From Alphaproteobacteria bacterium (GTDB lineage: Bacteria; Pseudomonadota; Alphaproteobacteria; UBA2966), in assembly GCA_018654745.1 (NCBI GenBank), contig JABILA010000085.1, positions 74,191 through 138,190 of the forward strand: DNA of 64,000 nucleotides. Reading direction: 5' to 3'. This document shows positions 24,608 through 43,160 of the stretch, piece after piece; positions within the stretch are counted from its first letter, which is position 1, and each line of letters begins with the position of its first letter. The position numbers and the translations under genes were made by a program. Under the pieces are notes generated by a model that saw only the letters and a program-made list of their open reading frames with translations, did no database searches and had not been told where the DNA came from.

Positions 24608-26059
24608 TTACCCGCCGTTTCGCGAACCCGGGGCCCGTGACGGGATATCGCCGGAACGGCCTGGCGTGTACATGCCGCCATAGGCGCCGCGCTTGACGAA
24701 GTTGCCATCGCCCTTTTGGCCCAGATACTGACCCTTGTCGATGATCATGCGACCTCGGCTGAAGACGGTTTCGGTGAAGCCTTTCACCGGCATGCCTTCA
24801 TAAGCGTTGTAATCGATGTTCATGTGATGGGTATGACCGTTGTAATAGCTGATGATCTCTTCGCGTTCAGGATCGAAGATCACGATGTCGGCGTCACTAC
24901 CCACAGCAATGGTGCCCTTTTTCGGGAACAGGCCAAAGATTTTGGCGGGTGAGGTTGATGTCAGTTCGACAAAACGGTTGATGTCCAGGTATCCCCCGTT
25001 GACGCCATAGTGATAGATCAGGCTCATACGGTTTTCGATGCCGGGGCCGCCATTGGGGATCTTGCTGAAGTCGCTTTTGCCCAGTTCCTTCTGTTCTTTC
25101 ATGCAGAATGGGCAATGATCCGTTGAAATGGCGTTCAGGGCATTGCCGCGCAATCCGCGCCACAGTTCTTCCTGGTTCCACTTTTCCCTGAGCGGCGGTG
25201 TCAGCACATATTTAGCGCCCTCAAAACCTGGCTCATCATATTTGTCGACATCCAGCAGCAGGTATTGCGGGCAGGTTTCAGCATGGGCCATGACGCCACG
25301 GGCCTGGGCCATGCGCAGCTCCTGCAGCGAGTCATAGCTGCTAAGGTGTACAATGTAGACCGGCGACTTCGCCACTTCGGCAATTGCCAATGCACGGTGA
25401 ACGCCCTCTGCTTCGAGGCGTGTGGGCCTGGTCAGGGCATGATATTTGGGTTCAATGTGGCCTTCCGACAGGGCGATCTTGATCAGCTCATCGATCACAA
25501 CACCATTTTCCGCGTGCATGCAAATCAGCGTACCGTCTTCGCCAGCCTGGCGCATGGCCCGGAATATTGTGCCGTCATCAGACATCATGGCCCCTGGATA
25601 GGCCATAAACATTTTGTAACTTGTGACCCCTTCGTCCGCCAGCGCCCGCATTTCCTTTGTGCGCGTTTCCGGCATATCTGTCAGGATCATATGGAAGGCA
25701 TAATCAATCGCTGTTTCCCCGGCAGCCTTGGCATGCCACGTTTCCAGGGCTTCCAGAGACGACTGCCCCTTCATCTGAACGGCGAAATCAATGATGCAAG
25801 TGGTGCCTCCGAATGCGGCGGCACGTGTGCCTGTTTCGAACGTATCCGACGTGGTTGTTCCACCAAAGGGAAGCTCGAGATGCGTGTGCGGATCGATACC
25901 GCCAGGGATCACCAGCTTGCCTGCGGCATCAACCACAACATCGGCTTCCAGTTGCAGATTTTTGCCAATCAGGTCAATCGTGTCGTCATTGACATAGATA
26001 TCTGCGTGATAGTCGTCTGTTGCCGTTACGATCCGGCCATTCTTGATTAATACGCTCAC
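24608..26059 (-). CDS. D-hydantoinase / dihydropyrimidinase (cyclic amidohydrolase)
   Basis: 483 aa from a GTG start with a GGGGAGG RBS. Starts MSVLIKNGRIV...GGIDPHTHL and has a carboxylated-Lys region. It has a C-terminal Gly/Pro-rich tail of about 25 aa. The longer ORF to 27061 is an artefact. Confidence 0.85.
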   Translation of the reverse strand: MSVLIKNGRIVTATDDYHADIYVNDDTIDLIGKNLQLEADVVVDAAGKLVIPGGIDPHTHLELPFGGTTTSDTFETGTRAAAFGGTTCIIDFAVQMKGQSSLEALETWHAKAAGETAIDYAFHMILTDMPETRTKEMRALADEGVTSYKMFMAYPGAMMSDDGTIFRAMRQAGEDGTLICMHAENGVVIDELIKIALSEGHIEPKYHALTRPTRLEAEGVHRALAIAEVAKSPVYIVHLSSYDSLQELRMAQARGVMAHAETCPQYLLLDVDKYDEPGFEGAKYVLTPPLREKWNQEELWRGLRGNALNAISTDHCPFCMKEQKELGKSDFSKIPNGGPGIENRMSLIYHYGVNGGYLDINRFVELTSTSPAKIFGLFPKKGTIAVGSDADIVIFDPEREEIISYYNGHTHHMNIDYNAYEGMPVKGFTETVFSRGRMIIDKGQYLGQKGDGNFVKRGAYGGMYTPGRSGDIPSRAPGSRNGG

Positions 26060-26089
26060 AAAATGCCTCCCCTGATCAATCTGGTTTGC

Positions 26090-26102
26090 TATAATTGTAT
26101 AC
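26090..26102. promoter_or_regulatory. TATAAT-TTGTATAC motif, followed by a TTGTAT repeat, in the divergent promoter between the D-hydantoinase and the ABC transporter
   Basis: Reads gcTATAATTGTATACTGTTGTATca. Confidence 0.4.
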
Positions 26103-26236
26103 TGTTGTATCATCTTGCACACTACGTGATCACAGAAATCATTAATTGGCCTTTGAGAATGACCAGGTAATAGTTTGAGATCGTGTTCATTCGCGTTAAG
26201 GCCGGAAAAATAACAATCGCTCCAGGGAGAACGAAG

Positions 26237-27508
26237 ATGGCCAAAGACAAGAAGAAGACTAGTAGCAAAGTATCGCGTCGCCAGTTTGTTGGCGGTGCCG
26301 CAGGCGCAGTCGCCGCAAGCTCGGTAGTCGGATTTCCGGCAATCGTCTCGGCAGCCGACCCTATTCGCGCCATTGGTCTGGGCGTGAGTATCATCAATGA
26401 AATTCAAAGCCGTGCCGCCAAGGATATTGGCTTTGGTATTCGGGGCCAGGCGCTTGGTTATGGTGCCCTGTTCGGCAAGACTTTGAACCAGAACGACCAG
26501 TATGAAGTGTCGGAATGCTATTTCGACATGTTCGACGCAATGGTGCCGTCCAAGGTATTCCAGCCCATTGATACCAAGCGTATCCGTGACTGGGACAAGG
26601 TCTCGAACCTTGTTAAAACCGGCAAGCTGACACCAGGTTCGCAAATCGGTCAGGGCGATGCACCTGTTACCAAGTTGTGGGTCGACAAGGACGGTAATCC
26701 AACCGATGGTCCGTCGCAATATATCTCGGCTGTTCCAGCTGCGCATAATGCGGACTCGCTGGGCTATAACCCGGACGACACCGGCCGCGCGATTGAAAGC
26801 TGGGCCGAACTCTACAGCCCGGATTTCAAAGGCAAGGTTGCGCTTATCAATGTGCCTCAGGTTGGTGTGATGGATGCTGCCATGGGCATGGAAGCGTTGG
26901 GTCTGGCGAAATTCGGCGACAAGGGTGACATGACCCGCGCTGAAATCGACACCTTGATCGAGTTCCTGATCGTCAAGAAAAAGGAAGGCCACTTCCGCGC
27001 TTTCTGGGAAACCTTCGGCCAGTCCGTGAACCTGATGGTATCCGGTGAAGTCGCCCTGCAAAGCATGTGGTCACCGGCGGTGACGGCTGTAAATGCTGAA
27101 GGTGTTAAGTGCGTCTATGCTTCACCAAAAGAAGGCATGCGTGGCTGGCATGGTGCATTGGCAATTTCCGCCAAGGCATCCGGCAAAAAGCTTGATCAGG
27201 CTTATGAATATATCAACTGGTGGCTGGATGGCTGGGCCGGTGCCTTTGTGGCGCGTCAGGGCTACTATTTCTCGACGCCGGCAAATACCAAAAAGCACCT
27301 GCCAAAAGCAGACTGGGATTTCTGGTATGAAGGCAAGCCTGCTGCCATGGAACTCAATGATCCGTTTGGCTCTCCATTGGTCGAAAAAGGCGCTGTCCGT
27401 GACGGTGGCTCCTATGAACAGCGCTTCAAGAACATCGCTGTCTGGAACTCGATCATGAAAGAAAATGATTATCTGGTGAAACGCTGGACCGAGTTTCTCG
27501 GCTCCTGA
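26237..27508 (+). CDS. ABC transporter periplasmic substrate-binding protein (PotD/PotF-like family) with a Tat signal
   Basis: GGGAGA RBS. Twin-arginine motif SRRQFVGGAAGA, followed by an SBP family-1 fold. Confidence 0.75.
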   Translation: MAKDKKKTSSKVSRRQFVGGAAGAVAASSVVGFPAIVSAADPIRAIGLGVSIINEIQSRAAKDIGFGIRGQALGYGALFGKTLNQNDQYEVSECYFDMFDAMVPSKVFQPIDTKRIRDWDKVSNLVKTGKLTPGSQIGQGDAPVTKLWVDKDGNPTDGPSQYISAVPAAHNADSLGYNPDDTGRAIESWAELYSPDFKGKVALINVPQVGVMDAAMGMEALGLAKFGDKGDMTRAEIDTLIEFLIVKKKEGHFRAFWETFGQSVNLMVSGEVALQSMWSPAVTAVNAEGVKCVYASPKEGMRGWHGALAISAKASGKKLDQAYEYINWWLDGWAGAFVARQGYYFSTPANTKKHLPKADWDFWYEGKPAAMELNDPFGSPLVEKGAVRDGGSYEQRFKNIAVWNSIMKENDYLVKRWTEFLGS

Positions 27509-29480: not shown

Positions 29481-30581
29481 TCAGCGGTTCGCCGTCACGA
29501 CGTCCAGCAAAATTCCGGCTTCGGCGCCCCAGCTGATGGTTTCGCGGTCGCCGTAGTTACGTATGGAATCAGATAGTTTCCGGTGTTGCTCCACCTTGAC
29601 ATAATGTTGCGGCGCAATCTCAAAAACATCGGTTTCCAGGGTGCCGAGATATTCCGTGTTGACATAGGCACCTTCAATTGAATTCGCCATGTCGCCATTT
29701 TCGCCCGTATGCATCAGGTCAGCCCGGACAGAAAAAGTGACTTCCTGGCCGACGGCGACGTCCGCGATATAGTCTGGCTTTCGCACGTAATAGAGTTTTT
29801 CACCGGATTCAACGAAAACGATGGAACCGCTGCGCGACTTGATCACACCGTCAAAGAGATTGTTCGTGCCGATGAAGTCAGCAACAAAGCGGGTGCGTGG
29901 CGATTCGGCGATTTCCCGGGAGGTGCCGATTTGTTGCACCAGACTGTCACTCATAACGATGACCTTGTCGGCCATGGCCATGGCTTCCGCCTGTGAGTGC
30001 GTGACCATGATAAAGGTCATCTCAAGATCACGCTGAATGCGCTTTAACTCAATCATCATGGTCTGGCGCAGCGAATAGTCCAGCGCGCCCAATGGTTCAT
30101 CCAGCAATAGCAAAGTCGGGTTGGAAATCAGGGCACGGGCGAGGGCAACACGTTGTTGCTGGCCACCGGATAAATCTGCCGGACGCCGCATGGCAAAATC
30201 ACTCAGGCCCACCATTTCAATCATCTGCCAGGCTTCGCGCGAACGTTTGTCGGGCTCGATACCCTGCATTTTCAGACTGAATTCAACGTTCTGCAAAACA
30301 TTGCGGTGGGGAAACAGCGCGAAGCTCTGGAACATCATCGCTGTGTCGCGCTGCGACGGAGGCAGGTCTGTGACGTCCTCCCCCTGTATCTCGATAGATC
30401 CGGAGGTGACTTCCTCGAGACCGCCGATCATGCGCAGGGTCGTGGTCTTGCCACAGCCCGACGGCCCCAGCATGGCAACAAACTCACCCCGTTCAATCTC
30501 GGCGTTGAAGTCAATTACCGCACGTACACCGCCGGGGTAAGTCTTGTCGACGTTCCGGAGAACGACGTCAATTTCAGCCAT
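29481..30581 (-). CDS. ABC transporter ATP-binding protein (PotA-like, with C-terminal TOBE domain)
   Basis: Walker A GPSGCGKTT, signature LSGGQQQRVALARAL and Walker B LLLDEPLGALD. It is on the opposite strand to its permeases and co-directional with the flotillin gene 12 nt upstream. Confidence 0.85.
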   Translation of the reverse strand: MAEIDVVLRNVDKTYPGGVRAVIDFNAEIERGEFVAMLGPSGCGKTTTLRMIGGLEEVTSGSIEIQGEDVTDLPPSQRDTAMMFQSFALFPHRNVLQNVEFSLKMQGIEPDKRSREAWQMIEMVGLSDFAMRRPADLSGGQQQRVALARALISNPTLLLLDEPLGALDYSLRQTMMIELKRIQRDLEMTFIMVTHSQAEAMAMADKVIVMSDSLVQQIGTSREIAESPRTRFVADFIGTNNLFDGVIKSRSGSIVFVESGEKLYYVRKPDYIADVAVGQEVTFSVRADLMHTGENGDMANSIEGAYVNTEYLGTLETDVFEIAPQHYVKVEQHRKLSDSIRNYGDRETISWGAEAGILLDVVTANR

Positions 30582-30593
30582 ATACCTTACCCG

Positions 30594-33407
30594 TTAATCA
30601 GCTGCCTTCGCAGTCGCCTGGAGGAGCGACCAGACCGTCTCAAATGGCAGGTCATTAAACGCACCACCTTCATTGGCATTTTTCAGCAAGCCAAGCGCCT
30701 GCGTCTGAGCCTCATTATTTCCGGCCTTGTTCTCCAGGACCTTGAGAGCATCGGAGAAGGGAATCTCGCGCTTCTTTTTGGTGCCAAAATTATCACGCAC
30801 CAGATCAGACAGTTGTTCCGCCATCTCGCGGAATTCACCGCCACGACCAGGCTTGCCCCAAATGCCGCGAATGCCGTTGCTGGCAAAGCGCTGTTTCAGG
30901 CCTTCTGGCAGGGATTGGGCGACACCTTCCAGAACTTCACCAAGGGAGAAGCCTGAGGTGAACATGTCGCGGATGGTGTCAACGGTTCCGTCACCGCCGC
31001 CATACATCCGGATCTGGGCCTGGCTTAGGGCGTTACCCATGGCTTTGGCCTGATCAATATGCACATCACGTTCTGCTTCGATTTGCAGTTTGGAGAGTTC
31101 AAGGAAAGCGGCAGCGTCATTATATTTCTTGAGCGCTTCGGCCTTGGCTTCCATGCCATTTGCCTCGGCTTCCAACATACGCTGGGTATTGTTGACGCGT
31201 AGTTCCTCGATCTCGGCTTCGGCCCGACCGCGTGCCGCGGCTTCCTGGGTAATGCCATCGGCCGAGATGACCTGGGCTTCGCTGTTGGCCTTGGCCCGGA
31301 TCAGCGTTGCATCAGATTCTTCGGACGCTGACTTTTTACGGGCAGAGGCCTGACTGATCATATGCATGGAATTCACCGCTGCATCAGCTTCCTCGGCAAT
31401 GGTTTTGGTTTCCGCGGCCTGTTCAGCAGAAATCCGTTCCACTTCTTTCGACTGTTCGGCATCCGCAACCACACGGGCAGTCTCAACACCTTTTTCTGCT
31501 TTGGCTTTTTCAGCTGTGGTCTTCAGACGTTTGACTTCAGCATCTTCCAGTTCACGGGTCTTGTTAACGAGGACGATTTCACGATCACGCTCTTCCTTTT
31601 CACGGGCGAGGAAGCGCAGTATGTCAGCTTTTTCGCGTTCCTGCTCCTTGGCGATGATCTTGATTTCATCTTCCTTGGTTGCCAAGGCCTGGGCCGTGCG
31701 TGATACGCGGGCCGCTGCGTAATATTCGCCTTCCTTGTTGACCAGGGCGATTTCGCGATCCTTTTCCTCGGCTTCACGAGCCAGCTGGCGGCGAATTTCA
31801 GCGCGCTCCAGTTCTTCGGCTTTGCCAACAAGGGCAATATCACGATCCCGCTCTTCAGCTTCACGAGCCAATGAACGACGGATTTCGGCGGCTTCGCGGG
31901 CCTTGCTTTCGTCGATGACAGTTGCGTCGCGCTTTATCCGGGCCTGTTCGATGGTCAGCTCAGTGGCGATTTCTTCCTGCTCTACCTCCAGACGGCGTTC
32001 AAGAATAATGCGCTGCTTCTCGCTCAGGACACGCGCCTTCTCTTCGGCGATCTGCTTTTCCTGTTCGGCAACAGCGAGGGCTTCGTCCTTGTCAATATTC
32101 AGCACATTCAGCTTCGTATCCAGGGCCCGTTTGCGCATGGTCAAAGATGTGGCTTCCGTCACTTTGTGACGGGCATCCCGCGCAGCTTCTTCGGCTTTCA
32201 TGACCTCAGTTGTCTGGGCGATGTCTGCTTCCTGGCGTTCACGCTCCTTGGCAGATAACTGGATTGCCCTGTCTTTTTCAGCCGCTTCACGAGCCAGCGA
32301 GCGATCAATTTCGGCCAACTCATTTTGTTTGGCCTTTTCGACCAGGGCGATCTGGCGATCTTTTTCTGCCTGTTCCAGCGCCAGGTTACGCTCGATATTC
32401 GAGAGCTCTTCTTCCTTGGCTTTGCCGATCAGGGCGATTTCCTTGTCGCGGCGTTCTTTCTCCAGAGTCAAAGTGCGGTCAATTTCCGACAGCTCACGTT
32501 TCTTGGCTTCTTCGGTAATCGCGACTTCACGGTCTGTGCGCTGACGCTCCAGTTCAACTTCGTTGGAGATTTCGCGTTCTTCGACAGCCTTGCGCTGGTC
32601 CAGCATATAGACTTGCTTCTGACCCAGTTGCAGTGCCTGTTCGTTGGAAATGTCCTTGTCCTGACTGGCGTTCGCGAAGGCTTCTTTTCTTTCGATCTCC
32701 AGCAGTTCCAGCTGTGTATCGAGATCCTTCTGGCGAATGGCAACAGTTGTGCGCTTTTCGGTTTCGTGCACCTTGCGCTTGGCGTTGGAGGTAATCTCGG
32801 TGATGATCTTCAAACCTTCAGCATCAAAGATGTTGTTGGAATTGAAGTATTCCTTACCGGCCTGTTCCAGGGTCACAATGGTAACTTCTTCCAACAGCAA
32901 ACCGTTGACCTGGAAACTCGCAATAACGTTTTCCTTGACGGCCTGGGCAAACTCTTCGCGGTTCTCATGCAATTCGCTCAGGGTCTTGGTCGCGGCATAA
33001 CTGCGCAGGGCACTTACAACCTTGGCTTCCAGCAAGTTGCGAACTTTTTCAGCATCGAAGGTTTTGTCACCCAGACTGCGACTGGCGGTCAGCAGGTCAT
33101 CTTCCGTGCGCCCGACATGGGCATACAGTTCTGTGACAATATCAATCCTGATTTTGTCCGACGTCAAAACGGCCTGCTCGCGTGAGCGGCTGACGATCAG
33201 CTTGATGGTTTCCAGGGAAATCCACGATACCTCGTGGAAAACAGGCAGGACTATCGCACCACGCCCCAGGCACACCTTGGTGCCCAGAAAACCGGTTCGG
33301 ATAAAGCCCATGTTGGCTGGCGCTCTTTTGTACACCCAGATCGAGATGACATAAAGAATGGCCAGGACAACAATTGCCGAGAAGAAAGTTCCAATCCAAA
33401 GTTCCAT
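30594..33407 (-). CDS. Flotillin-like SPFH/Band-7 protein (YqiK family) with a greatly expanded coiled-coil repeat region (937 aa)
   Basis: N-terminal TM helix plus an SPFH domain (GFIRTGFLGTKVCLGRGAIVLPVFHEV...). It has at least six 29-31-aa repeats of consensus AEI-R-LAREAEEKDR-IALV-KA-E, and a YqiK-like C-terminus. Confidence 0.75.
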   Translation of the reverse strand: MELWIGTFFSAIVVLAILYVISIWVYKRAPANMGFIRTGFLGTKVCLGRGAIVLPVFHEVSWISLETIKLIVSRSREQAVLTSDKIRIDIVTELYAHVGRTEDDLLTASRSLGDKTFDAEKVRNLLEAKVVSALRSYAATKTLSELHENREEFAQAVKENVIASFQVNGLLLEEVTIVTLEQAGKEYFNSNNIFDAEGLKIITEITSNAKRKVHETEKRTTVAIRQKDLDTQLELLEIERKEAFANASQDKDISNEQALQLGQKQVYMLDQRKAVEEREISNEVELERQRTDREVAITEEAKKRELSEIDRTLTLEKERRDKEIALIGKAKEEELSNIERNLALEQAEKDRQIALVEKAKQNELAEIDRSLAREAAEKDRAIQLSAKERERQEADIAQTTEVMKAEEAARDARHKVTEATSLTMRKRALDTKLNVLNIDKDEALAVAEQEKQIAEEKARVLSEKQRIILERRLEVEQEEIATELTIEQARIKRDATVIDESKAREAAEIRRSLAREAEERDRDIALVGKAEELERAEIRRQLAREAEEKDREIALVNKEGEYYAAARVSRTAQALATKEDEIKIIAKEQEREKADILRFLAREKEERDREIVLVNKTRELEDAEVKRLKTTAEKAKAEKGVETARVVADAEQSKEVERISAEQAAETKTIAEEADAAVNSMHMISQASARKKSASEESDATLIRAKANSEAQVISADGITQEAAARGRAEAEIEELRVNNTQRMLEAEANGMEAKAEALKKYNDAAAFLELSKLQIEAERDVHIDQAKAMGNALSQAQIRMYGGGDGTVDTIRDMFTSGFSLGEVLEGVAQSLPEGLKQRFASNGIRGIWGKPGRGGEFREMAEQLSDLVRDNFGTKKKREIPFSDALKVLENKAGNNEAQTQALGLLKNANEGGAFNDLPFETVWSLLQATAKAAD
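31538..32498 (-). repeat. In-frame tandem repeat region, about 90-nt period, encoding the flotillin coiled-coil repeats
   Basis: Protein residues about 304-624 show repeated ELSEIDRTL / LAREAAEKDR / IALVxKA blocks. The corresponding DNA shows repeated gcgatttc...cttgtcgcg-type segments. Confidence 0.5.
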
Positions 33408-33469: not shown

Positions 33470-35743
33470 TCATGATACACCTGTTTTTCGCTCACCGAAA
33501 TCGAACAATTCCAGTGCTTTTCGACCGTGTTTCAAAGCCTCGCGTAAATCTGTTGTGGCTCTGAGATCAAGTTCATGCCGTCGCCCACCAATGACAACGC
33601 CATAGGCTTCGCGGGCTTTGTCCAGGGTCGTCAACTTGCGGGCGACATCATTTCTGACACGCTGTGGATCACGCTCAAGCGGATCACCCCAGCCTCCACC
33701 GCCAGCCGTTCGAAAGACAATTCTATCGCCTTCTTCGACCCGCACGTTATCAATTTTTGAGGGCAAGGGTTCGGGTTCAGCGTTGCCACGAATAATCCAT
33801 TTTGCCGAGCAAGCACCGGGTTGTCCGCCAAGAATACCCCAGGGCTGTGATTCATGACGATCGTCATGAATAGAGACGTCGCCCGGTTCCAGCAATCGAT
33901 AGACTTTTTCTATACCATTGCCGCCGCGATGTTTACCGGCACCACCGGTATCCGCAACGGAGCCATAACGCTCGATGACCATGGGATAGAAATTTTCGAG
34001 ATATTCCGTGGGAATGTTTTCAAACAAAGGCCACCAGGAATGGCCGTCCATGCCGTCACCGACCGGACGTCCCGGAATACCACCATAGAGAATTTCCATG
34101 AGCTGGAACGGTCGTTTATGACTGTCCGTGCCGGAAAACAGGAAATGTGGACTGGAGCCATAACCCGCAGCCGTTGCCATCTCGGGTGCGTGACGACTGA
34201 GGGCACCGCCCATAACATCAAACTGGCGCGACAGGGCATGGGTGCGACAACCCAGCGCTGCCGGGAATTCAGGATTAACCAGCGACCCCTTGGGCAGGGT
34301 CACATGAATCAGATCATAAAAGCCGTCATTAAACAAAATCTGCGGATCAAAAACCATGATCATGTAGACGCCAATGAACATCTTGAACATGCCGTCATGC
34401 AGATAGAAATTAATCGGACCCGGTGCCTGGGCCGACGTTCCGGTCCAGTCAAAATAAGCGTGATCCCCTTCGCGCCAGACCGTCAGCTTCATTTTGAAGG
34501 GACCGTTACCGCAACCATCGTCATCCACAAAGTCTTCGAAATATTGGGGCTCTTCCGGCAGGTTTTGTACGATCAACTTGCGCATGGCCCGGTTGGTGCG
34601 TTCCAGCAAGGCTTCGCAGGCCTGCTTATAGGTCCCGGTGCCAAAGCGATCACAGATTTCGATCACCCGACGTTCACCGGCACGACACCCGGCAACAATG
34701 GCCATCAGGTCACTGTAATTCATTTCCGGGGTGCGGGTGTTGTTCATCAGGATATCAAGGGCGGCTTCGTTCAGGACCCCGGCGTCATAAATCTTGATCG
34801 GCGGGATGCGCATACCTTCGCCAAAGATCGAGGTCGCTGCCGTCGGCATGCTGCCCGGCACGGGGCCACCAACATCCATCATGTGGCCAAACATCGACGC
34901 AAAACCAACCAGTTCCGGATTTGATTTCGCGCCCACAAAGACCGGGATCAAAACCATCCAGTCATTGATATGGCTGATGGCACCGCCGCACTTATAGGGA
35001 TCACTTTGCAGGATCACGTCACCTGGTTTGAGATCAAAATCCTGCTGCTTCAGCATCTCGGAAATATAAGAGCCGAACTGGCCGACGATCATGCGCCCGT
35101 CGGCATCTGTGATCATGGGAAATTCGTCATGCTGTTCACGGATTACCGGCGACATGGCCGACCGGAACAACAAGGCATCCATTTCGTGGCGCGCATTGCG
35201 CAAGGCATTTTCGATCAGGTCCAGGGTCACAACGTCCAGAGGACCTGCAACTGCCACTGCACCTTTGCCAGCACGGGCAGCAGGTGATTTGGGTGACTGA
35301 TCCTCTTCCACCGACGGGGCCGGCGCACGTCCGGTGAACTGATCCGCACATCGTAGGGCTGCTTCGGTCGCAGCCTGCTCAAAAGCCAGTGCCCAGTTGC
35401 CGTCCAGCGAGGCTGAGCCCTGATCTGCCTTGGATTGCCCCTCTACCGTCAACTTGATGCGGACAATCGCTTTATCATTGTCGGATTTGACATCAATGAT
35501 GTCGTGCGACCAGTCAAAATCAAATCGCCTGTTCAAGGCGACGACCGCTGCCGTGGCCAGTTTCAGATTGCCTGGCACCTGATTGTCTGATTGTGACCCG
35601 GCCTGACTGGCCGGTCGGGCGCTGGGGCTGAGCAAACTGGCATCGTCCATCTGGCGACTGAACAGCTGGTCAAACTGGTCCTTGTTGGCGGTCAACAAGT
35701 CGTCCAGCGAAATGGGAGTGCGCGTGCGGGTTTCTTCAGACAT
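33470..35743 (-). CDS. hyuB: Hydantoinase B/oxoprolinase family protein, copy 2, with an N-terminal extension of about 170 aa (helix, linker, small beta-rich module, P/A-rich linker)
   Basis: The HyuB core begins at about aa 170 (VVTLDLIENALRNAR). The ATG lies 2 nt after the hyuA-2 stop. The extension opens with ISLDDLLTANKDQFDQLFSR. Confidence 0.8.
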   Translation of the reverse strand: MSEETRTRTPISLDDLLTANKDQFDQLFSRQMDDASLLSPSARPASQAGSQSDNQVPGNLKLATAAVVALNRRFDFDWSHDIIDVKSDNDKAIVRIKLTVEGQSKADQGSASLDGNWALAFEQAATEAALRCADQFTGRAPAPSVEEDQSPKSPAARAGKGAVAVAGPLDVVTLDLIENALRNARHEMDALLFRSAMSPVIREQHDEFPMITDADGRMIVGQFGSYISEMLKQQDFDLKPGDVILQSDPYKCGGAISHINDWMVLIPVFVGAKSNPELVGFASMFGHMMDVGGPVPGSMPTAATSIFGEGMRIPPIKIYDAGVLNEAALDILMNNTRTPEMNYSDLMAIVAGCRAGERRVIEICDRFGTGTYKQACEALLERTNRAMRKLIVQNLPEEPQYFEDFVDDDGCGNGPFKMKLTVWREGDHAYFDWTGTSAQAPGPINFYLHDGMFKMFIGVYMIMVFDPQILFNDGFYDLIHVTLPKGSLVNPEFPAALGCRTHALSRQFDVMGGALSRHAPEMATAAGYGSSPHFLFSGTDSHKRPFQLMEILYGGIPGRPVGDGMDGHSWWPLFENIPTEYLENFYPMVIERYGSVADTGGAGKHRGGNGIEKVYRLLEPGDVSIHDDRHESQPWGILGGQPGACSAKWIIRGNAEPEPLPSKIDNVRVEEGDRIVFRTAGGGGWGDPLERDPQRVRNDVARKLTTLDKAREAYGVVIGGRRHELDLRATTDLREALKHGRKALELFDFGERKTGVS

Positions 35744-35745
35744 AT

Positions 35746-37845
35746 CTAGTTCTGCCCCGCCGCTGATTGACCCGCAACTGATTGTGTCACCAAAGCCTGC
35801 CCTTCGGGATGGATCAGGATATTCAGATATTCATCGACATCACCGGCATAACCCGGATGGATGACACAGGTCGAATCTTTTTGAACCACAATGGCCGGGC
35901 CTGAGATATGGTTTCCGGCCTCCAGCTTGTTGCGGTCGTAAACGCCGGTGTTCACAAAGCTGCCGTCAAAATACACCTGGTCCTGACGCAACAAGGCGGA
36001 AGACGCATCGGGTCCGGCTTTTTCAAACTTTGGAAACGCAACCTTGTCCACCTGGCCTGTACCGATCACACGCAAATTGACGATCTCAACCGGTTGATCA
36101 AGTTTGAAGCCATATTGGCGTTCATGGGCGGCACCAAAATCGGCGGCCAGACCAGCAAGACCTGATCCTTGCAGCTTTTCCGGATCGACATCCAGGCTGA
36201 ATTCATAACCCTGACGGAAATAGCGCACATCAGCCTGATAGCGCACTTCACGTCCGGTCTGGCCCAGGCCTTCTTCCTGCAGCCAGGCGTTGGCTTCGGC
36301 CCCTAGGCCGTTCAGAATATCGACGACCTCGGACACTTCTATATCGTCGATGGTCCGGGCAAAGGTACGGGCAAATTCGTTTTTGATATCGGAATACAGG
36401 AAACCCAGCGCCGATAATACGCCAGGCGTTGGCGGCACAATGACCGGGAAACAACCAGCCAGAATACCCATGGCGTTGCCATGCAAAGGCCCGGCACCAC
36501 CAAAAGCCACCAGCGCAAAGTCCCGTGGATCAAGGCCTTTTTGCACAGAGACCAGACGCAAGGCACCAAACATGTTTTCGTTGACGATATTAAGAATGCC
36601 TTCCGCCGTCTGGTGCAAATCAAGCCCCAGCGCACCGCCCAGTTTAGAGACGGCATCCTTGGCGGCCTGAACATCCAGGGACATGCTGCCGCCCAACAGG
36701 CTGGGAGGCAGGCGACCCAGAACAACGTTGGCATCCGTAACAGTTGGCGCATCACCGCCATGGCCGTAACAAGCCGGTCCAGGCCGGGCACCAGCGCTGT
36801 CGGGACCCACGCGCAAGGCACCGGTCATCGGTACATGGGCAATGGAGCCACCGCCTGCACCGACGGAATGAACTTCGACAGACGGCACCTTGATCGGATA
36901 GTAACCCAGCTGGGTTTGACGCGACAAATTGGGCGTTCCGTTCTGGATCATCGACACATCGGTTGAGGTGCCGCCCATATCGAAACCCAGGGCGTTTGGA
37001 TACCCGGCCAATGTGGCCAGGTAAGCGGCACCGGATACACCACCGGCGGGGCCGGACAACATGGTATGAACCGGAGATTCGGTTGCCCGTGCAACACTCA
37101 TCAAGCCGCCGTCGGAACGGACAATATTAACCTTGGGACTGAACTGGATACCGCGCAGTTTTTCTTCGAAGCCTTTCAGATAGCGCCCCATGCTGGGTCG
37201 CACATAGGCGTTCATCACTGTCACCAGTGTGCGCTCATATTCACGGAACTCCGGCAGCAATTCTGACGACAGGGAAATGGGAATATTGGCATCCATTTCC
37301 TGGATCATGGCCTTGAGGCGTTTTTCGTGTGACGGGTCCGCATAGGAATGCATCAATGAGATGGTAATCGACTCGACACCTGAATCCAGGAGCTCACGGA
37401 TACTCTCACGGGCCAGGGTCTCTTCCATGGGGGTGATGATATCGCCGCGCGCAGAAATGCGTTCCTGTATGCCGCGGGTAAATTCCAGATCCGCCAGCGG
37501 GTCCGGCTTTATCATGATCATCCAGCCAGCCAGAGGGCCGGGCGTCTGTGATCGTGCCAGATGCAGGACTTGCTCAAATCCTTCGGAGACCAGTAAACCA
37601 ACCCTGGCACCTTTTTCCTCGAGCACGATATTTGTAGATACTGTGGTGCCATGCAGCAGGGCTTCGATGCTCGACGGCGACACGCCGGTTTCACGCACCA
37701 ATTCTTCAATACCATTGTGAATGCCGACGGATTGGTCAGCCGGAGTCGAGGGCGTCTTTAACAGATGCATGGCACCTGTTTCGCCGTCAAATAGCAGGAG
37801 ATCGGTAAACGTCCCCCCTACATCAATGCCAAGTCGACTTGACAT
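35746..37845 (-). CDS. hyuA: Hydantoinase A/oxoprolinase family protein, copy 2
   Basis: 699 aa starting MSSRLGIDVGGTFTDLLLF. GGAGG RBS. Confidence 0.85.
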   Translation of the reverse strand: MSSRLGIDVGGTFTDLLLFDGETGAMHLLKTPSTPADQSVGIHNGIEELVRETGVSPSSIEALLHGTTVSTNIVLEEKGARVGLLVSEGFEQVLHLARSQTPGPLAGWMIMIKPDPLADLEFTRGIQERISARGDIITPMEETLARESIRELLDSGVESITISLMHSYADPSHEKRLKAMIQEMDANIPISLSSELLPEFREYERTLVTVMNAYVRPSMGRYLKGFEEKLRGIQFSPKVNIVRSDGGLMSVARATESPVHTMLSGPAGGVSGAAYLATLAGYPNALGFDMGGTSTDVSMIQNGTPNLSRQTQLGYYPIKVPSVEVHSVGAGGGSIAHVPMTGALRVGPDSAGARPGPACYGHGGDAPTVTDANVVLGRLPPSLLGGSMSLDVQAAKDAVSKLGGALGLDLHQTAEGILNIVNENMFGALRLVSVQKGLDPRDFALVAFGGAGPLHGNAMGILAGCFPVIVPPTPGVLSALGFLYSDIKNEFARTFARTIDDIEVSEVVDILNGLGAEANAWLQEEGLGQTGREVRYQADVRYFRQGYEFSLDVDPEKLQGSGLAGLAADFGAAHERQYGFKLDQPVEIVNLRVIGTGQVDKVAFPKFEKAGPDASSALLRQDQVYFDGSFVNTGVYDRNKLEAGNHISGPAIVVQKDSTCVIHPGYAGDVDEYLNILIHPEGQALVTQSVAGQSAAGQN

Positions 37846-38666: not shown

Positions 38667-39722
38667 TCAGGCGGATAGCTGCTGAATATCCGAATTCGCA
38701 AGGCCGTTGAAGGCCGCCAGTGAGGCTTCAATCCGGGCCTGATCCATATCGCGCACTATAAAGACCAGCCTTGATCTCTTGTCTTCATCCGGCCAGTTTT
38801 CGAGATGCACCGGTGGGTGCACGACATGCTGCACACCGTTGATCAGCACCGGCGTGCCAACCCCCAGTACATTTAGCATCCCTTTGATTCTTAACACTTT
38901 ATCGCCGTAATGATTGAGCAACATGGTCATCCAGATGCCATAGGCTGTCCAGTCCAGGGGGGCATCAAAAGTCAGGGCAAAGGACGTGACACCGGAGGTA
39001 TGAAGGTGATCGCCCGCGTTATCATGATCATGCCCCGCATGTGAGGCGGTCGTTGCCGTCGACATCAGGTGGTTGATTTCCTGGCGCTTGCCTTTTGGGT
39101 CATGAATATCTTCCGTGATCAAACGCCGGGGACCAAGATCATCAACGGCTGCATCAAATAAAGGTGCCGAAATATTCAGGCGCTGCAGGGCGAGGCGCAA
39201 GGCTGCCGTGTCGCCCGGGTCCGCAATATCCGTTTTGGTGATAATCAGGCGGTCGGCAACAGCGACTTGTTTAACAGGCTCTTCAAATTCCGCCAGCTGT
39301 TTCAAGCCGTTGACGGCATCGACCGTAGTGATCACATTGCCAAGGCGGAAATGATGCTGCAACACAGGTTCCGCCAATACCGTATAGGCGATAGGCACGG
39401 GGTCAGCGAGACCGGATGTTTCGATAATCACGCGTTTAAAAGCCGGTATTTCACCGCGTTCCCGACGGTCGAACAAATCCCGCAAACTGTCCTTGAGATC
39501 ACCGCGAATGGCACAGCAGATACAGCCATTGTCCATCAACAAAGTGCTCTCGGTGGCGGTCTCCAGCAGGTGATGATCGAGACCAACTTCGCCAAATTCA
39601 TTGACCAGCACCGCCGTGTCATCGAGCAAAGGCGAATGTAATAACTGCTGCAGCAAGGTCGTTTTACCGCTGCCGAGGAAGCCGGTCACGACATTGACGG
39701 GAATGAAAGAATTGTATGCCAT
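38667..39722 (-). CDS. COG0523 (CobW/ZigA/Zng1-like) G3E-family GTPase metallochaperone
   Basis: P-loop GFLGSGKTT and the GCICC metal-binding motif. It has a C-terminal CobW_C-like domain with His-rich stretches (HAGHDHDNAGDHLH). Confidence 0.8.
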   Translation of the reverse strand: MAYNSFIPVNVVTGFLGSGKTTLLQQLLHSPLLDDTAVLVNEFGEVGLDHHLLETATESTLLMDNGCICCAIRGDLKDSLRDLFDRRERGEIPAFKRVIIETSGLADPVPIAYTVLAEPVLQHHFRLGNVITTVDAVNGLKQLAEFEEPVKQVAVADRLIITKTDIADPGDTAALRLALQRLNISAPLFDAAVDDLGPRRLITEDIHDPKGKRQEINHLMSTATTASHAGHDHDNAGDHLHTSGVTSFALTFDAPLDWTAYGIWMTMLLNHYGDKVLRIKGMLNVLGVGTPVLINGVQHVVHPPVHLENWPDEDKRSRLVFIVRDMDQARIEASLAAFNGLANSDIQQLSA

Positions 39723-40046
39723 CTAGTCCGCCGTCAGGTCGGCAATCAAGTCATCAGCCAGCGGATCAAAGGACCGCCCGGTCAGGGTTTCCGCCTGGGC
39801 CCACATTTGCGCCAGATTATCGACAATGGCCGTTTTGCCGGTATTGCCCTTGAGGATATAGGCATTGCCTGACCAATCCTTGAGGCCGAGACCATAATGC
39901 CCAAGAACGCGGTTAACGATGCGGGTGCGTTGCTGGCGTTCCCGAAGGGATGTCCCCGGATCTGATTGTGCGGCAAAGGCATCCGGGTTTGTTGACTGGT
40001 CCGTCCAGTGACCCCGCCCGCCAAGGACACCACACAGGCCACACAT
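39723..40046 (-). CDS. Hypothetical small protein (107 aa) beginning MCGLCG, translationally coupled to the COG0523 GTPase
   Basis: Its stop abuts the GTPase ATG, and its ATG lies 6 nt after the deacetylase stop. No family recognised. Confidence 0.45.
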   Translation of the reverse strand: MCGLCGVLGGRGHWTDQSTNPDAFAAQSDPGTSLRERQQRTRIVNRVLGHYGLGLKDWSGNAYILKGNTGKTAIVDNLAQMWAQAETLTGRSFDPLADDLIADLTAD

Positions 40047-40051
40047 ATCCG

Positions 40052-41065
40052 TTACCTCGGGTTTCGGGCGGCAAAGTCATCGGCAATTTCATCAAATGTG
40101 CAGAACCGCACACCCGTATGGGCGCTGATATGATCAAAGACCCGTTGCAGCATCATCTGAACCTGCGGTCGCCCGGACACATCCGGATGGATCGTCAAGG
40201 TGAAGACAGCATAATCATATTCGTTATAAACCCAGTCGAACTGATCAATCCACAATTGTTCGATATCGCGCGGATTAACAAAACCATGACTGTTTGGAGC
40301 GCCCTTGATGAACATCATCGGTGGCAAATCATCGAGATACCAGCTGCCGGGAATATCAATCAGATCCGTTTCCTGACCACGAACCAGCGGTTTCATCCAT
40401 TCGTCCGGGTGCTTGGAATAATCGATCTTGGTCCAGCTGTCGCCAACGCGCGCATAAAACGGGTGGAAGTCGTCGTTCATCAAACTGTGGTCGTACTTGA
40501 TGCCCTTGGCCAACAACAGTTCGTTGGTAATGGGACTGAATTCCCACCACGGCGCTACATAGCCGGTGGGTCGCCTGCCGGAAACCTCTTCAATCAGCTC
40601 GATACATTTGTCCATCACCGCTTCTTCCTGAACCGGTGTCATGGCGATGGGATTTTCATGACTGTAGCCATGCATGCCAATTTCATGTCCGGCATCAACC
40701 ACCATCTGGGTTTCTTTCGGAAAAGTCTCGATGGAGTGGCCGGGGATAAACCAGGTGGTGGGGATTTGCCATTTGTCGAACAAGCGCACCAAACGCGGCA
40801 CCCCCACTTCACCGGCAAACAAACCACGGGAAATATCACAAGGCGAATCTTCGCCACCGTATGACCCCAACCAACCGGCAACAGCATCCACATCAACACC
40901 CACGGCACAAAGGATTTCCTTGCGTCCGCCACTGGCCGCAGACCGGCTGGCGATGGAACTGGAGGCTGAGCTGGAAGAAAAGGCCGGGCGAGGCTGATAT
41001 CGCCCACCTGACACACCGCCGCGAATACCCTGTGTTGGTCGACCAGACCCGGAACTGTCACTCAT
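40052..41065 (-). CDS. Polysaccharide deacetylase (CE4) family protein, PuuE/allantoinase-like, with an N-terminal Ser/Gly-rich disordered segment of about 50 aa
   Basis: Catalytic region ...[13 protein letters not shown]...[13 protein letters not shown]...HPDVSGRP. The N-terminus reads [47 protein letters not shown]. Confidence 0.75.
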
Positions 41066-41312: not shown

Positions 41313-42041
41313 TTGTTGAGCGATTGGCAAGACGAAACACTGCAGAGTTATCAGAACAAGGGCCTGGGCTCTCGTGCCGGGTTCGGCAAACGTCCGGCAT
41401 TGTTAATAGTGGATTTCATTAACGGATTTACCGACCCGTCTTCGCCGCTGGGTGGTGATTTTTCGAGCCAGTTGGCCGTGACCGGTCAATTGCTGGAAGT
41501 TTTCCGCCGCGAACGGCTGCCCATCGCATATACCACTATTGAATATGACGCCGATTATCGCGATGCCGGTGTCTTTATCAAAAAGGTCCCATCGCTTTCG
41601 GTGCTGCTGCGGGGCTCTCCCATGTGCAATATCGATGATCGTATCCGCCCCGAAACCGGCGAATATATTGTCTCCAAAAAATACGCCAGCAGCTTCTTCG
41701 GCACCAATCTGGATACCTGGTTGCGCAACAATGACGCCGACACCGTTGTCATTGTCGGCTGCACCACAAGCGGATGCGTCCGCGCTTCTGCCGTTGATTC
41801 GCTGCAATACGGTTATTACACCATCGTTGTCCGGGAAGGCTGCGGTGACCGGGCAGATGGCCCCCACGAAGCCAATCTTTTTGATATGGACGCCAAATAT
41901 GCTGACGTTGTCTCGACTGCAGAAGCCCTGGACTATGCCAACGGCCTGACCCGCAAACCTGATTCTCATGCAGCGCGTGTAGCTGGCCGCAACTTCAAAA
42001 GCTGGTGGGCCGAAGGCAACACAGACAAGCAGGAAGGATAG
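41313..42041 (+). CDS. Isochorismatase-family cysteine hydrolase (N-carbamoylsarcosine amidase-like), copy 2
   Basis: TTG start with an AGGGAGA RBS. Carries VVIVGCTTSGCVRASAVDSLQYGYY. It is a paralog of 20399-21046. Confidence 0.75.
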   Translation: MLSDWQDETLQSYQNKGLGSRAGFGKRPALLIVDFINGFTDPSSPLGGDFSSQLAVTGQLLEVFRRERLPIAYTTIEYDADYRDAGVFIKKVPSLSVLLRGSPMCNIDDRIRPETGEYIVSKKYASSFFGTNLDTWLRNNDADTVVIVGCTTSGCVRASAVDSLQYGYYTIVVREGCGDRADGPHEANLFDMDAKYADVVSTAEALDYANGLTRKPDSHAARVAGRNFKSWWAEGNTDKQEG

Positions 42042-42045
42042 ACCG

Positions 42046-42255
42046 ATGTCCGGAAAATACACCTCTGCCTTTGATGACATGCTGGCCAGTAATGAAAAGC
42101 AGATGAACGATGTCCTGGGTGTATCACCGGCATCCCGGCACCAGAGCAAACCCGTCGCAGCAGAGCAAGCACCTGTCCCGGACACGTCCCGGGCAGCGAC
42201 CAGTGATACGGTGTCGGGCACGGCCAATGGCATCCCTTTTACCCTGAAAACCTGA
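42046..42255 (+). CDS. Small protein (69 aa): N-terminal helix homologous to the HyuA-1 and HyuB-2 N-terminal peptides, followed by a Pro/Ala/Ser-rich disordered tail
   Basis: AGGAAGGA RBS. AFDDMLASNEKQMNDVLG aligns with LDDLLTANKDQFDQLFS (HyuB-2) and FDTQLDDFKNEFDQLGG (HyuA-1). Confidence 0.45.
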   Translation: MSGKYTSAFDDMLASNEKQMNDVLGVSPASRHQSKPVAAEQAPVPDTSRAATSDTVSGTANGIPFTLKT

Positions 42256-42290
42256 CGACAAACCAAGAACCATAAATCGGAGTTAACCGT

Positions 42291-43160
42291 GTGAGTAATT
42301 CAATCATCCGCGACAAACTGGATCGTGGCGAATTTTTTCTGGCGCCTGGCATCCACGATATGATGGCCGCCGTGATTGCCAACAAGGTTGGATTTGAAAT
42401 TGTCTATGGCACAGGCTACTGGATGACCGCTTCGGCTTATGGTCTGCCGGATGCCGGTATTGCAACCTATTCCCAAATGCTGGACCGGGTTTCTACCCTG
42501 GCCAGAACTTCGGACGCGGCGGTGATTGCGGATGCGGATACCGGTTACGGCGGCTTGTTGAATGTGCACCACACCGTGCAAGGATATGAAGAGGCCGGGA
42601 TCACGGCCATTCAGATTGAAGACCAGGAATTCCCTAAAAAATGCGGCCACACACCCGGCAAAAAATGTGTGCCGCTGGAAATCATGACTGACAAGATCAA
42701 GGTCGCCTGCGATGCCCGCAAGGACAAGAAGAATACCCTGATCGTGGCCCGGACAGATATTTACCAGGCCGAAGGGTTTGATGCCTCCATCCGCCGTGGC
42801 GCTGCCTTTGCCGAAGCCGGCGCTGACATTATCTTTGTCGAAGCCCTGACCAGCGAAGACGAAATGCGCCGGGCCTGCGATGAAATCGACGCCCCGATGA
42901 TTTCCAATATGGCCCAGGGTGGTGATACCCCCATGCGCACAGGCGAAGAACTGGCGGATATTGGCTATGCCTGCGCCATCTATCCGGCAACGACAGCCCT
43001 GTCCGCGGCCTATGCCACCGAACAGGCCCTGCTGCATTTGAAACACCAGGGCACCAACGAAAGCCCGGATGTGCCGATGTTTGATTTCCAGGAGTTTAAT
43101 CGCCTGATCGGCTTCGAAGAAGTCTGGGCCTTCGACAAAAAATGGGCCCGCGACGACTGA
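42291..43160 (+). CDS. Isocitrate lyase/PEP mutase superfamily enzyme (2-methylisocitrate lyase / carboxyvinyl-carboxyphosphonate phosphorylmutase-like)
   Basis: GTG start with a GGAG RBS. Carries ADADTGYGG...IQIEDQEFPKKCGHTPGK...ARTD, close to PrpB. Confidence 0.8.
   Translation: MSNSIIRDKLDRGEFFLAPGIHDMMAAVIANKVGFEIVYGTGYWMTASAYGLPDAGIATYSQMLDRVSTLARTSDAAVIADADTGYGGLLNVHHTVQGYEEAGITAIQIEDQEFPKKCGHTPGKKCVPLEIMTDKIKVACDARKDKKNTLIVARTDIYQAEGFDASIRRGAAFAEAGADIIFVEALTSEDEMRRACDEIDAPMISNMAQGGDTPMRTGEELADIGYACAIYPATTALSAAYATEQALLHLKHQGTNESPDVPMFDFQEFNRLIGFEEVWAFDKKWARDD

Follow-up and report, generated by a model that had tools for sequence, protein, structure and literature searches.

A predicted Rad52-fold module and an acidic helix linked to a flotillin-like gene in the N-terminal extension of a HyuB-like hydrolase subunit

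SPFH proteins, flotillins among them, are described as assembling into rings that form membrane domes (PMC12624060), and in the accounts given of such ring or dome assemblies they hold client proteins (PMC12624060, PMC11348225, PMC12280208). In the streamlined marine bacteria SAR11, HIMB59 and Pseudothioglobus, a flotillin gene is fixed beside a rhodopsin paralogue, within a nitrogen-compound catabolic cluster that includes genes for a urea-carboxylase-like protein, PxpA and formamidase (PMC10308929). That cluster is the nearest parallel found in the literature and a further example of flotillin genes lying within catabolic islands, although its flotillin is a different one and no tag is reported for it (PMC10308929). 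The present analysis concerns the N-terminal extension of HyuB-2, a putative hydrolase subunit encoded by the gene hyuB-2 on a 64,000-nt stretch of an alphaproteobacterial genome (lineage UBA2966, assembly GCA_018654745.1, contig JABILA010000085.1, positions 74,191 to 138,190 of the forward strand), hereafter called the window. The extension starts with a short acidic helix, and hyuA, a hyuB tagged with this helix and a flotillin gene form a conserved three-gene unit in many soil and marine Alpha- and Gammaproteobacteria.

A first-pass annotation, made from the letters of the window, had given HyuB-2 an extension of about 170 residues, had placed its ATG 2 nt past the hyuA-2 stop codon with a suggestion of translational coupling, and had parsed the extension into a helix, a Ser/Pro linker, a small beta-rich folded domain and a second linker. 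All of this was borne out. The Pfam core begins at aa 170, which leaves 169-170 residues ahead of it. On the minus strand the hyuA-2 stop (TAG, 35746-35748) is followed by AT (2 nt) and then by the hyuB-2 ATG at 35743, and the suggestion of coupling holds. The four parts are all present in the AlphaFold2 (AF2) model of the extension that was used, which was built with 37 aligned relatives from an exhaustive HMMER search; a model made without an alignment was poor, with a predicted local distance difference test score (pLDDT) of 47, and was discarded. In the model with alignment, residues 13-35 form a helix at pLDDT of about 85, linker 1 falls below 50 at aa 42-53, and aa 61-140 form a compact module at pLDDT of about 95 (helix 64-74, strands 78-88, 91-100 and 103-112, helix 117-137). 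For this module the annotation had found no family, and here it has to be amended, as Foldseek searches with the model and Pfam searches with orthologues point to the Rad52 fold. The features concerned are the following.

33470 to 35743, minus strand: hyuB-2 coding sequence, 757 aa, N-terminal extension followed by a HyuB/CapB-like core (open reading frame, PF02538).
35639 to 35713, minus strand: acidic amphipathic helix, aa 11-35 (ISLDDLLTANKDQFDQLFSRQ), proposed docking peptide (AF2, nonsynonymous change, co-occurrence).
35564 to 35638, minus strand: linker 1, aa 36-60, rich in Ser, Pro, Ala and Gln, predicted disordered (pLDDT, nonsynonymous change).
35324 to 35563, minus strand: predicted Rad52-fold (annealing-protein core) module, aa 61-140, alpha-beta-beta-beta-alpha.
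35237 to 35323, minus strand: linker 2, aa 141-169, rich in Ala, Pro and Lys, predicted disordered (pLDDT about 50, nonsynonymous change 0.36).
35746 to 37845, minus strand: hyuA-2, CapA-like partner subunit without an extension, its stop 2 nt before the hyuB-2 ATG.
30594 to 33407, minus strand: 937-aa flotillin-like SPFH protein (Band_7), directly downstream of hyuB-2, proposed receptor or scaffold.

By its sequence, the core of HyuB-2 can be regarded as an ordinary HyuB/CapB-like subunit of a putative ATP-dependent lactam or hydantoin hydrolase of the HyuAB/caprolactamase type. Pfam Hydantoinase_B (PF02538) spans aa 170-688 (E 9.4e-150, 499.9 bits against a gathering cut-off of 26.8) and is matched over its complete length (profile positions 1-519 of 519), while hyuA-2, in operon arrangement with hyuB-2, carries the Pfam domains Hydant_A_N, Hydantoinase_A and Hydant_A_C. 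Against the NCBIfam model of caprolactamase beta (CapB, NF050157), HyuB-2 scored 239.6 bits, far under the equivalog cut-off of 1000, and it is therefore considered CapB-related and not an equivalog.

A genome scan with the full HyuB-2 protein yielded 80 loci (L001-L080). The first-pass annotation had allowed for the region being absent from all relatives; it is present and conserved in many, as the check in HyuB orthologues found the extension in about 45 of the 80 loci from genomes and in about 50 from metagenomes. It is thus no fortuitous lengthening of the reading frame. In L001-L049, from metagenome-assembled genomes of Alpha- and Gammaproteobacteria, a related extension lies in frame with its ATG 8-9 codons ahead of the helix (L031 is cut off by the contig end, and the extension is not scorable there), and in nearly all orthologues the ATG of the helix-bearing hyuB is found a short distance past the hyuA stop. 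In L050-L080 (Chloroflexi, Binatia and others) HyuB starts about 20 residues ahead of the core, and these cores are about as similar (61-67%) as those of L001-L049. A word-indexed protein search with the 170-aa extension gave no relative, while exhaustive HMMER found 40, two of which (P0009 and P0032) were rejected as repetitive junk. Given the success of HMMER and of the genome scan, which found dozens, a word-indexed negative is unreliable for short, fast-evolving regions.

Nonsynonymous (pN) and synonymous (pS) substitution levels were calculated against the closest relative, L081, whose flotillin is 94% identical to that of the window. The pN/pS values were 0.048/0.40 for the helix, 0.15/0.83 for the module and 0.046/0.56 for the catalytic core. 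For linkers 1 and 2 the pN was 0.28 and 0.36, with pS at 0.74-0.85, and linker 1 also differs in length and sequence between orthologues. This pattern indicates a translated extension that is subject to purifying selection, and the similar pN of helix and catalytic core indicates equal constraint on the two.

The presence of the helix coincides with that of the flotillin-like gene. By tblastn, this gene directly follows hyuB throughout L001-L049 and was found at none of the loci L050-L080, so that flotillin and helix partition the HyuB loci identically (49/49 helix-bearing against 0/31 helix-less orthologues). The linked flotillin genes encode 850-960 aa and lie within about 100 nt downstream of hyuB. 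A metagenome scan centred on the flotillin returned 80 loci at 54-94% identity, and wherever these include 2.4 kb or more of upstream DNA, a helix-bearing hyuB directly precedes the flotillin gene. Gammaproteobacterial copies (L030, L035, L038-L040, L042-L046) retain the helix, with a long disordered linker behind it, and are without the module, which was not found within 8 kb of these helix/flotillin loci either. The helix thus behaves as the constant, essential element and the module as an optional addition.

The flotillin-like protein opens with a transmembrane segment and the residues KR, after which come a Band_7/SPFH domain (Pfam Band_7, E 2.3e-13), a very long helical region with 29-residue repeats (R.LAREAEEKDREIALV...) and a conserved C-terminal domain. 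By the positive-inside rule, the KR after the transmembrane segment places the body of the protein in the cytoplasm. Against the NCBIfam model of FloT (NF058507) it scored 31.6 bits for a cut-off of 700, with the SPFH region alone aligning, and phmmer gave no PDB match for the 937-aa protein. Orthologue lengths in L001-L049 cluster at 850, 908 and 937 aa, with gaps of 58 and 29 residues, which suggests a helical wall or stalk that changes by whole repeats.

As the first-pass annotation had noted, the helix is common to other proteins of the window. Besides the hyuB-2 N-terminus, a hidden Markov model of the helix matched the N-terminus of hyuA-1 (20311, E 8.5e-8) and a 69-aa open reading frame (42046-42255, E 6.4e-10), and the helices have the motif h-D-x-x-L-x-x-x-K-x-x-F/L-D-x-h in common. 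The helix is thus portable. In many alphaproteobacterial loci it also occurs on standalone proteins of about 150-170 aa made up only of helix, linker and the Rad52-fold module. The additional carriers are given below.

20249 to 20311, minus strand: helix of hyuA-1 (LTGWFDTQLDDFKNEFDQL), followed by a linker of about 110 aa rich in Ala, Pro and Ser (gene 17867-20332).
42046 to 42255, plus strand: 69-aa open reading frame encoding the helix (SAFDDMLASNEKQMNDVL), then a disordered linker and, at the C-terminus, the conserved SGTANGIPFTLK motif.
L008, 1193 to 1678, minus strand, and L162, 3082 to 3594, plus strand: examples of standalone helix-plus-module proteins.

The hyuA-1 gene (17867 to 20332, minus strand) encodes a 140-residue N-terminal extension that begins with the related helix, and its partner hyuB-1 (15938 to 17839) is without an extension, so that the tag sits on the A subunit in pair 1 and on the B subunit in pair 2. 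Relatives of HyuA-1, about 790-825 aa long, make up more than 110 protein clusters, with an N-terminal LTSWFDxQLDDLKxEFDRLGG followed by a Pro/Ala linker of about 100 residues; their source names are only 'N-methylhydantoinase A' or 'hydantoinase/oxoprolinase family protein'. The standalone proteins have an insertion of about 20 residues ahead of the last helix and are always encoded just after a gene for an isochorismatase-family hydrolase, an arrangement also present in a more distant lineage (L162, L163). The 69-aa reading frame, which follows an isochorismatase gene (41313-42041), is their positional counterpart in the window, and its SGTANGIPFTLK motif resembles their GASGGVRFKIG insertion. 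Both the helix and the C-terminal SGTANGIPFTLK are found in its relatives, all on the minus strand (L081, 1234-1581; L001, 1595-2125; L082, 405-785; L102, 1355-1600). To judge from its sequence, this small protein may be an adaptor in reduced form, and its last strand may pair with the HyuB-2 module.

Of the HyuA-1 loci examined, two, in the window and in L164, lie no more than 10 kb from the flotillin cluster. In three others (L162, L163 and L166) the unit of isochorismatase gene and standalone protein adjoins a second hyuA, which is cut off by the edge of the locus. L161 and L165 have neither the flotillin cluster nor this unit within 10 kb. At L165 (1-1939, in a 9.4-Mb genome), two phage-type integrase genes occupy the place where the window and L164 have an ATP-binding cassette (ABC) ATPase and the flotillin, which suggests that the cassette is mobile or rearranged there.

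The helix of HyuB-2 has a hydrophobic moment of 0.40 and a net charge of -2. Over all the helices these values are 0.36-0.42 and -2 to -3, with a mean hydrophobicity of -0.04 to -0.17 and a polar face rich in D and Q. For a helix both acidic and amphipathic, protein binding fits better than lipid binding. The reading we prefer, with a probability of about 50%, is that the helix is a docking peptide on a flexible tether which recruits HyuAB to a flotillin scaffold. The acidic helix of about 20 residues would dock onto the giant flotillin-like SPFH protein encoded next door, with linkers 1 and 2 acting as flexible low-complexity tethers. In this way one subunit of each HyuAB pair (HyuB of pair 2, HyuA of pair 1), together with the small helix-bearing protein, would be brought to the flotillin assembly at the inner membrane, on its cytoplasmic side and close to the co-encoded ABC importer, and imported cyclic amides could be hydrolysed at the membrane, presumably by channelling. 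The Rad52-fold module, either fused or standalone, would multimerise the tags and so raise their valency.

The same helix could instead serve to assemble a metabolon by binding the Rad52-fold module or other helix proteins, thereby clustering both HyuAB enzymes and the accessory hydrolases, with the flotillin merely co-regulated or in a separate role. Helix and module do occur together on HyuB-2 and on the standalone proteins, several enzymes of one catabolic island bear the helix, and the HyuA-1 loci L161 and L165 have it with no flotillin gene nearby. Such an assembly is nevertheless rather unlikely, as the gammaproteobacterial loci combine helix and flotillin gene with no module in reach, and over about 100 loci the flotillin gene is the only strict partner of the HyuB helix.

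A direct attachment to the membrane, as by the amphipathic targeting sequences of MinD or FtsA, with the flotillin only organising the lipid domain, appears unlikely. The helix is amphipathic, with a hydrophobic moment near 0.4, and its context of flotillin and ABC transporter is membrane-related. However, known lipid-binding helices are basic and hydrophobic, while this one is net acidic with a D/Q-rich polar face and low mean hydrophobicity, and the polar positions that never vary (D, K, D) point to a specific contact with protein.

For the module, the structural model and the family profiles point in one direction. In a Foldseek search of the PDB with the module model, the top eleven matches were RAD52 chains (E 2e-4 to 1e-3), and against viral models a phage 'Rad52/59/22' protein came first (E 1.5e-5), with SAK3 annealing proteins next. 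In the two sets the best structural matches of the module are Rad52, Mgm101 and annealing proteins of phages; RNA-binding alpha-beta-beta-beta-alpha domains rank lower. Over 28 module sequences the sole recurrent Pfam family was Rad52_Rad22 (PF04098; 6/28), always spanning the entire module (profile positions 35-128 of 153), and the orthologous modules of L016 and L022 reached 21.5 and 21.9 bits against its gathering cut-off of 20.3. The window's own module, a more divergent copy, had no match in the Pfam search at E <= 10; it aligns with the matching orthologues, among which W78 is invariant. PDB and Pfam sequence searches with the window's own extension or module gave nothing useful, and weak TagT matches (E about 1.3) were dismissed. 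A match of the module profile to the small subunit of replication factor C (hmmsearch against the PDB, E 1.4e-3) was rejected, because the match falls in an AAA+ alpha/beta region, the Walker motifs are missing and the confident AF2 model shows a sheet of three antiparallel strands. By hhalign, the module alignment matched one RAD52 sequence over the FG..W stretch only, with a probability of 1.6%, a one-sequence template being uninformative.

The beta-beta-beta-alpha core fold of the Rad52/Rad22 family is present in the module, which on the strength of its model is taken to be a minimal Rad52-fold domain homologous to this core of Rad52-type annealing proteins. For a comparison of residues, RAD52 residues 63-165, from a sequence verified against the PDB, were added to the module alignment. 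The module keeps the RAD52 structural signature residues F79, G80, W84, G125, A146 and L151. It aligns to RAD52 residues of about 68-160 only, with disordered linkers on either side, and is without the N-terminal hairpin (human 25-67) and the C-terminal helices (160-208) that complete the ring subunit; residues 25-67 carry R55 and Y65 of the DNA groove. The residues of the inner and outer DNA sites are not conserved: the position of K152 is occupied by A/M/R/L/T, that of R153 by K/N/R/G/H and that of R156 by D/A/E, the outer-site K133 is replaced by E in 22/28 modules, and K102 is deleted. The isoelectric point of the module is about 5.3-5.8, compared with 7.9-8.6 for RAD52. With the basic DNA-site residues lost and the module acidic, it is read as an exapted domain, in which DNA binding is probably no longer retained. 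Rad52-fold proteins characteristically form rings, and by analogy the module is probably an oligomerisation or clustering domain.

That the module has kept an affinity for single-stranded nucleic acid (its own mRNA or DNA, for instance) and plays a regulatory or moonlighting role is therefore very doubtful. Its best fold and profile matches are single-stranded-DNA-annealing proteins, with RNA-binding domains behind them; the loss of the DNA-site residues and of the segment with R55 and Y65, the low isoelectric point and a purely catabolic and membrane-related context all speak against it. Highly improbable, too, is an encapsulation peptide for a bacterial microcompartment (BMC) or an encapsulin shell encoded elsewhere. 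The anatomy of a BMC encapsulation peptide is a terminal amphipathic helix with a poorly conserved linker, and HyuB-2 has both (the helix being of about 18-20 aa), but the constant neighbour is a flotillin gene and not a shell gene. No BMC-H or EutN homologue was found at E <= 1e-3 in the window and 163 loci (2.4 Mb) by tblastn with PduA and EutN queries, encapsulin not being searched by sequence. Least probable of all is that the long form is minor and the extension of little function, with translation mainly from an internal start, a use the first-pass annotation had considered: the in-frame GTG at V163 (35257), preceded by a weak AAGG, could at most yield a minor short isoform, no in-frame ATG lies between M32 and M188, the substitution pattern of helix and module is that of a translated region under strong purifying selection, and the upstream ATG is kept ahead of the helix and shortly after the hyuA stop in nearly all orthologues.

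The surroundings of hyuB-2 look like a putative catabolic island for a cyclic amide or N-heterocycle, made up of the two HyuAB pairs, a D-hydantoinase-like enzyme, the ABC importer and their neighbours. Its further members are as follows.

29481 to 30581, minus strand: ABC-transporter ATPase, directly downstream of the flotillin gene, with equal gene order in L008 and L164.
38667 to 41065, minus strand, and 41313 to 43160, plus strand: a CobW-type GTPase, a 107-aa protein without a family, a PuuE-like hydrolase of the polysaccharide-deacetylase fold, an isochorismatase-family amidase and a protein of the methylisocitrate-lyase/PEP-mutase family.

A third long extension, on an 817-aa reading frame (24608 to 27061, minus strand), was rejected, the frame being over-extended from a TTG and its N-terminal sequence implausible. 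Amidohydro_1 (D-hydantoinase/dihydropyrimidinase-like) begins there only with aa 383, and roughly 330 residues at the front resemble translated non-coding DNA; the true start of this gene is probably near MIQQYT or VLIKNGRIV.

Beyond the docking of single enzymes, a bolder form of the docking reading has an appreciable chance of being right: the helix may act as an address tag that directs enzymes to a flotillin-based platform or compartment of a kind not described before in Proteobacteria. With the same reserve, the giant SPFH protein might build a tall dome or raft on the inner membrane, the number of repeats setting its height. On this view soluble ATP-dependent lactam-hydrolysing enzymes, together with small adaptors built on an exapted phage-type Rad52 ring, would be recruited or enclosed there via the common peptide. 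For the question of how bacterial flotillins choose their clients, a discrete, deletable peptide of about 20 residues is a candidate recruitment signal and makes the question directly testable; if docking works, the peptide could serve as a small tag for sending proteins to flotillin platforms. The literature on flotillin or SPFH proteins with hydantoinase, oxoprolinase, caprolactamase or Rad52-like proteins gave no description of the arrangement. We could not find a description of a Rad52-fold domain outside DNA metabolism, nor of a short peptide common to several enzymes and strictly linked to a giant flotillin gene, and both are apparently undescribed.

Compared with known systems, the enzyme part is the most familiar. 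Like CapAB, N-methylhydantoinase HyuAB and 5-oxoprolinase, HyuB-2 has the full Hydantoinase_B profile, matches PDB chains of N-methylhydantoinase and hydantoinase and is paired with a HyuA gene, although scores against the NCBIfam equivalogs of this kind fall far short of the cut-offs. In residue-by-residue alignment, the solved HyuB-type chains 7hk5_A and 6yra_B align from profile position of about 163 onwards, that is, with the core only, and nothing in either aligned to the extension. Relative to the Rad52/Rad22 family (PF04098; human RAD52, yeast Rad52, Mgm101, phage Sak and Sak3), the module is shorter, at about 80 residues, and its neighbours, by fusion or by gene order, are catabolic enzymes and a flotillin gene instead of recombination genes. 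Re-use of a Rad52-type annealing core on a catabolic enzyme, outside DNA metabolism, would add to the uses known for this fold; it suggests that the property kept may be the formation of rings and not DNA binding.

With the encapsulation peptides of BMCs and the cargo-loading peptides of encapsulins, the extension has in common a short terminal amphipathic helix and a variable disordered linker ahead of the enzyme, as well as a helix that recurs on several enzymes of one locus and on one subunit only. It differs in its sequence motif and in its linked partner, a membrane-anchored SPFH/flotillin protein; encapsulin peptides, moreover, are usually C-terminal. The SPFH assemblies with clients (HflK/C with FtsH; the flotillin, erlin and prohibitin domes) and the major vault protein with PARP4 INT likewise rest on a large protein with a long helical wall. 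Here the SPFH gene adjoins that of the presumed client, and the presumed clients, unlike known ones, would be soluble ATP-dependent amide hydrolases with a dedicated short peptide; the flotillin itself, with its 29-aa repeats, is roughly double FloT or YqiK in length. By their defining features, the extension belongs neither to the compartment-targeting peptides nor to the clients of SPFH cages. Should the tentative platform exist, it would be a bacterial counterpart of client enclosure by the vault or by HflK/C, devoted to catabolic enzymes and addressed by a transferable targeting peptide.

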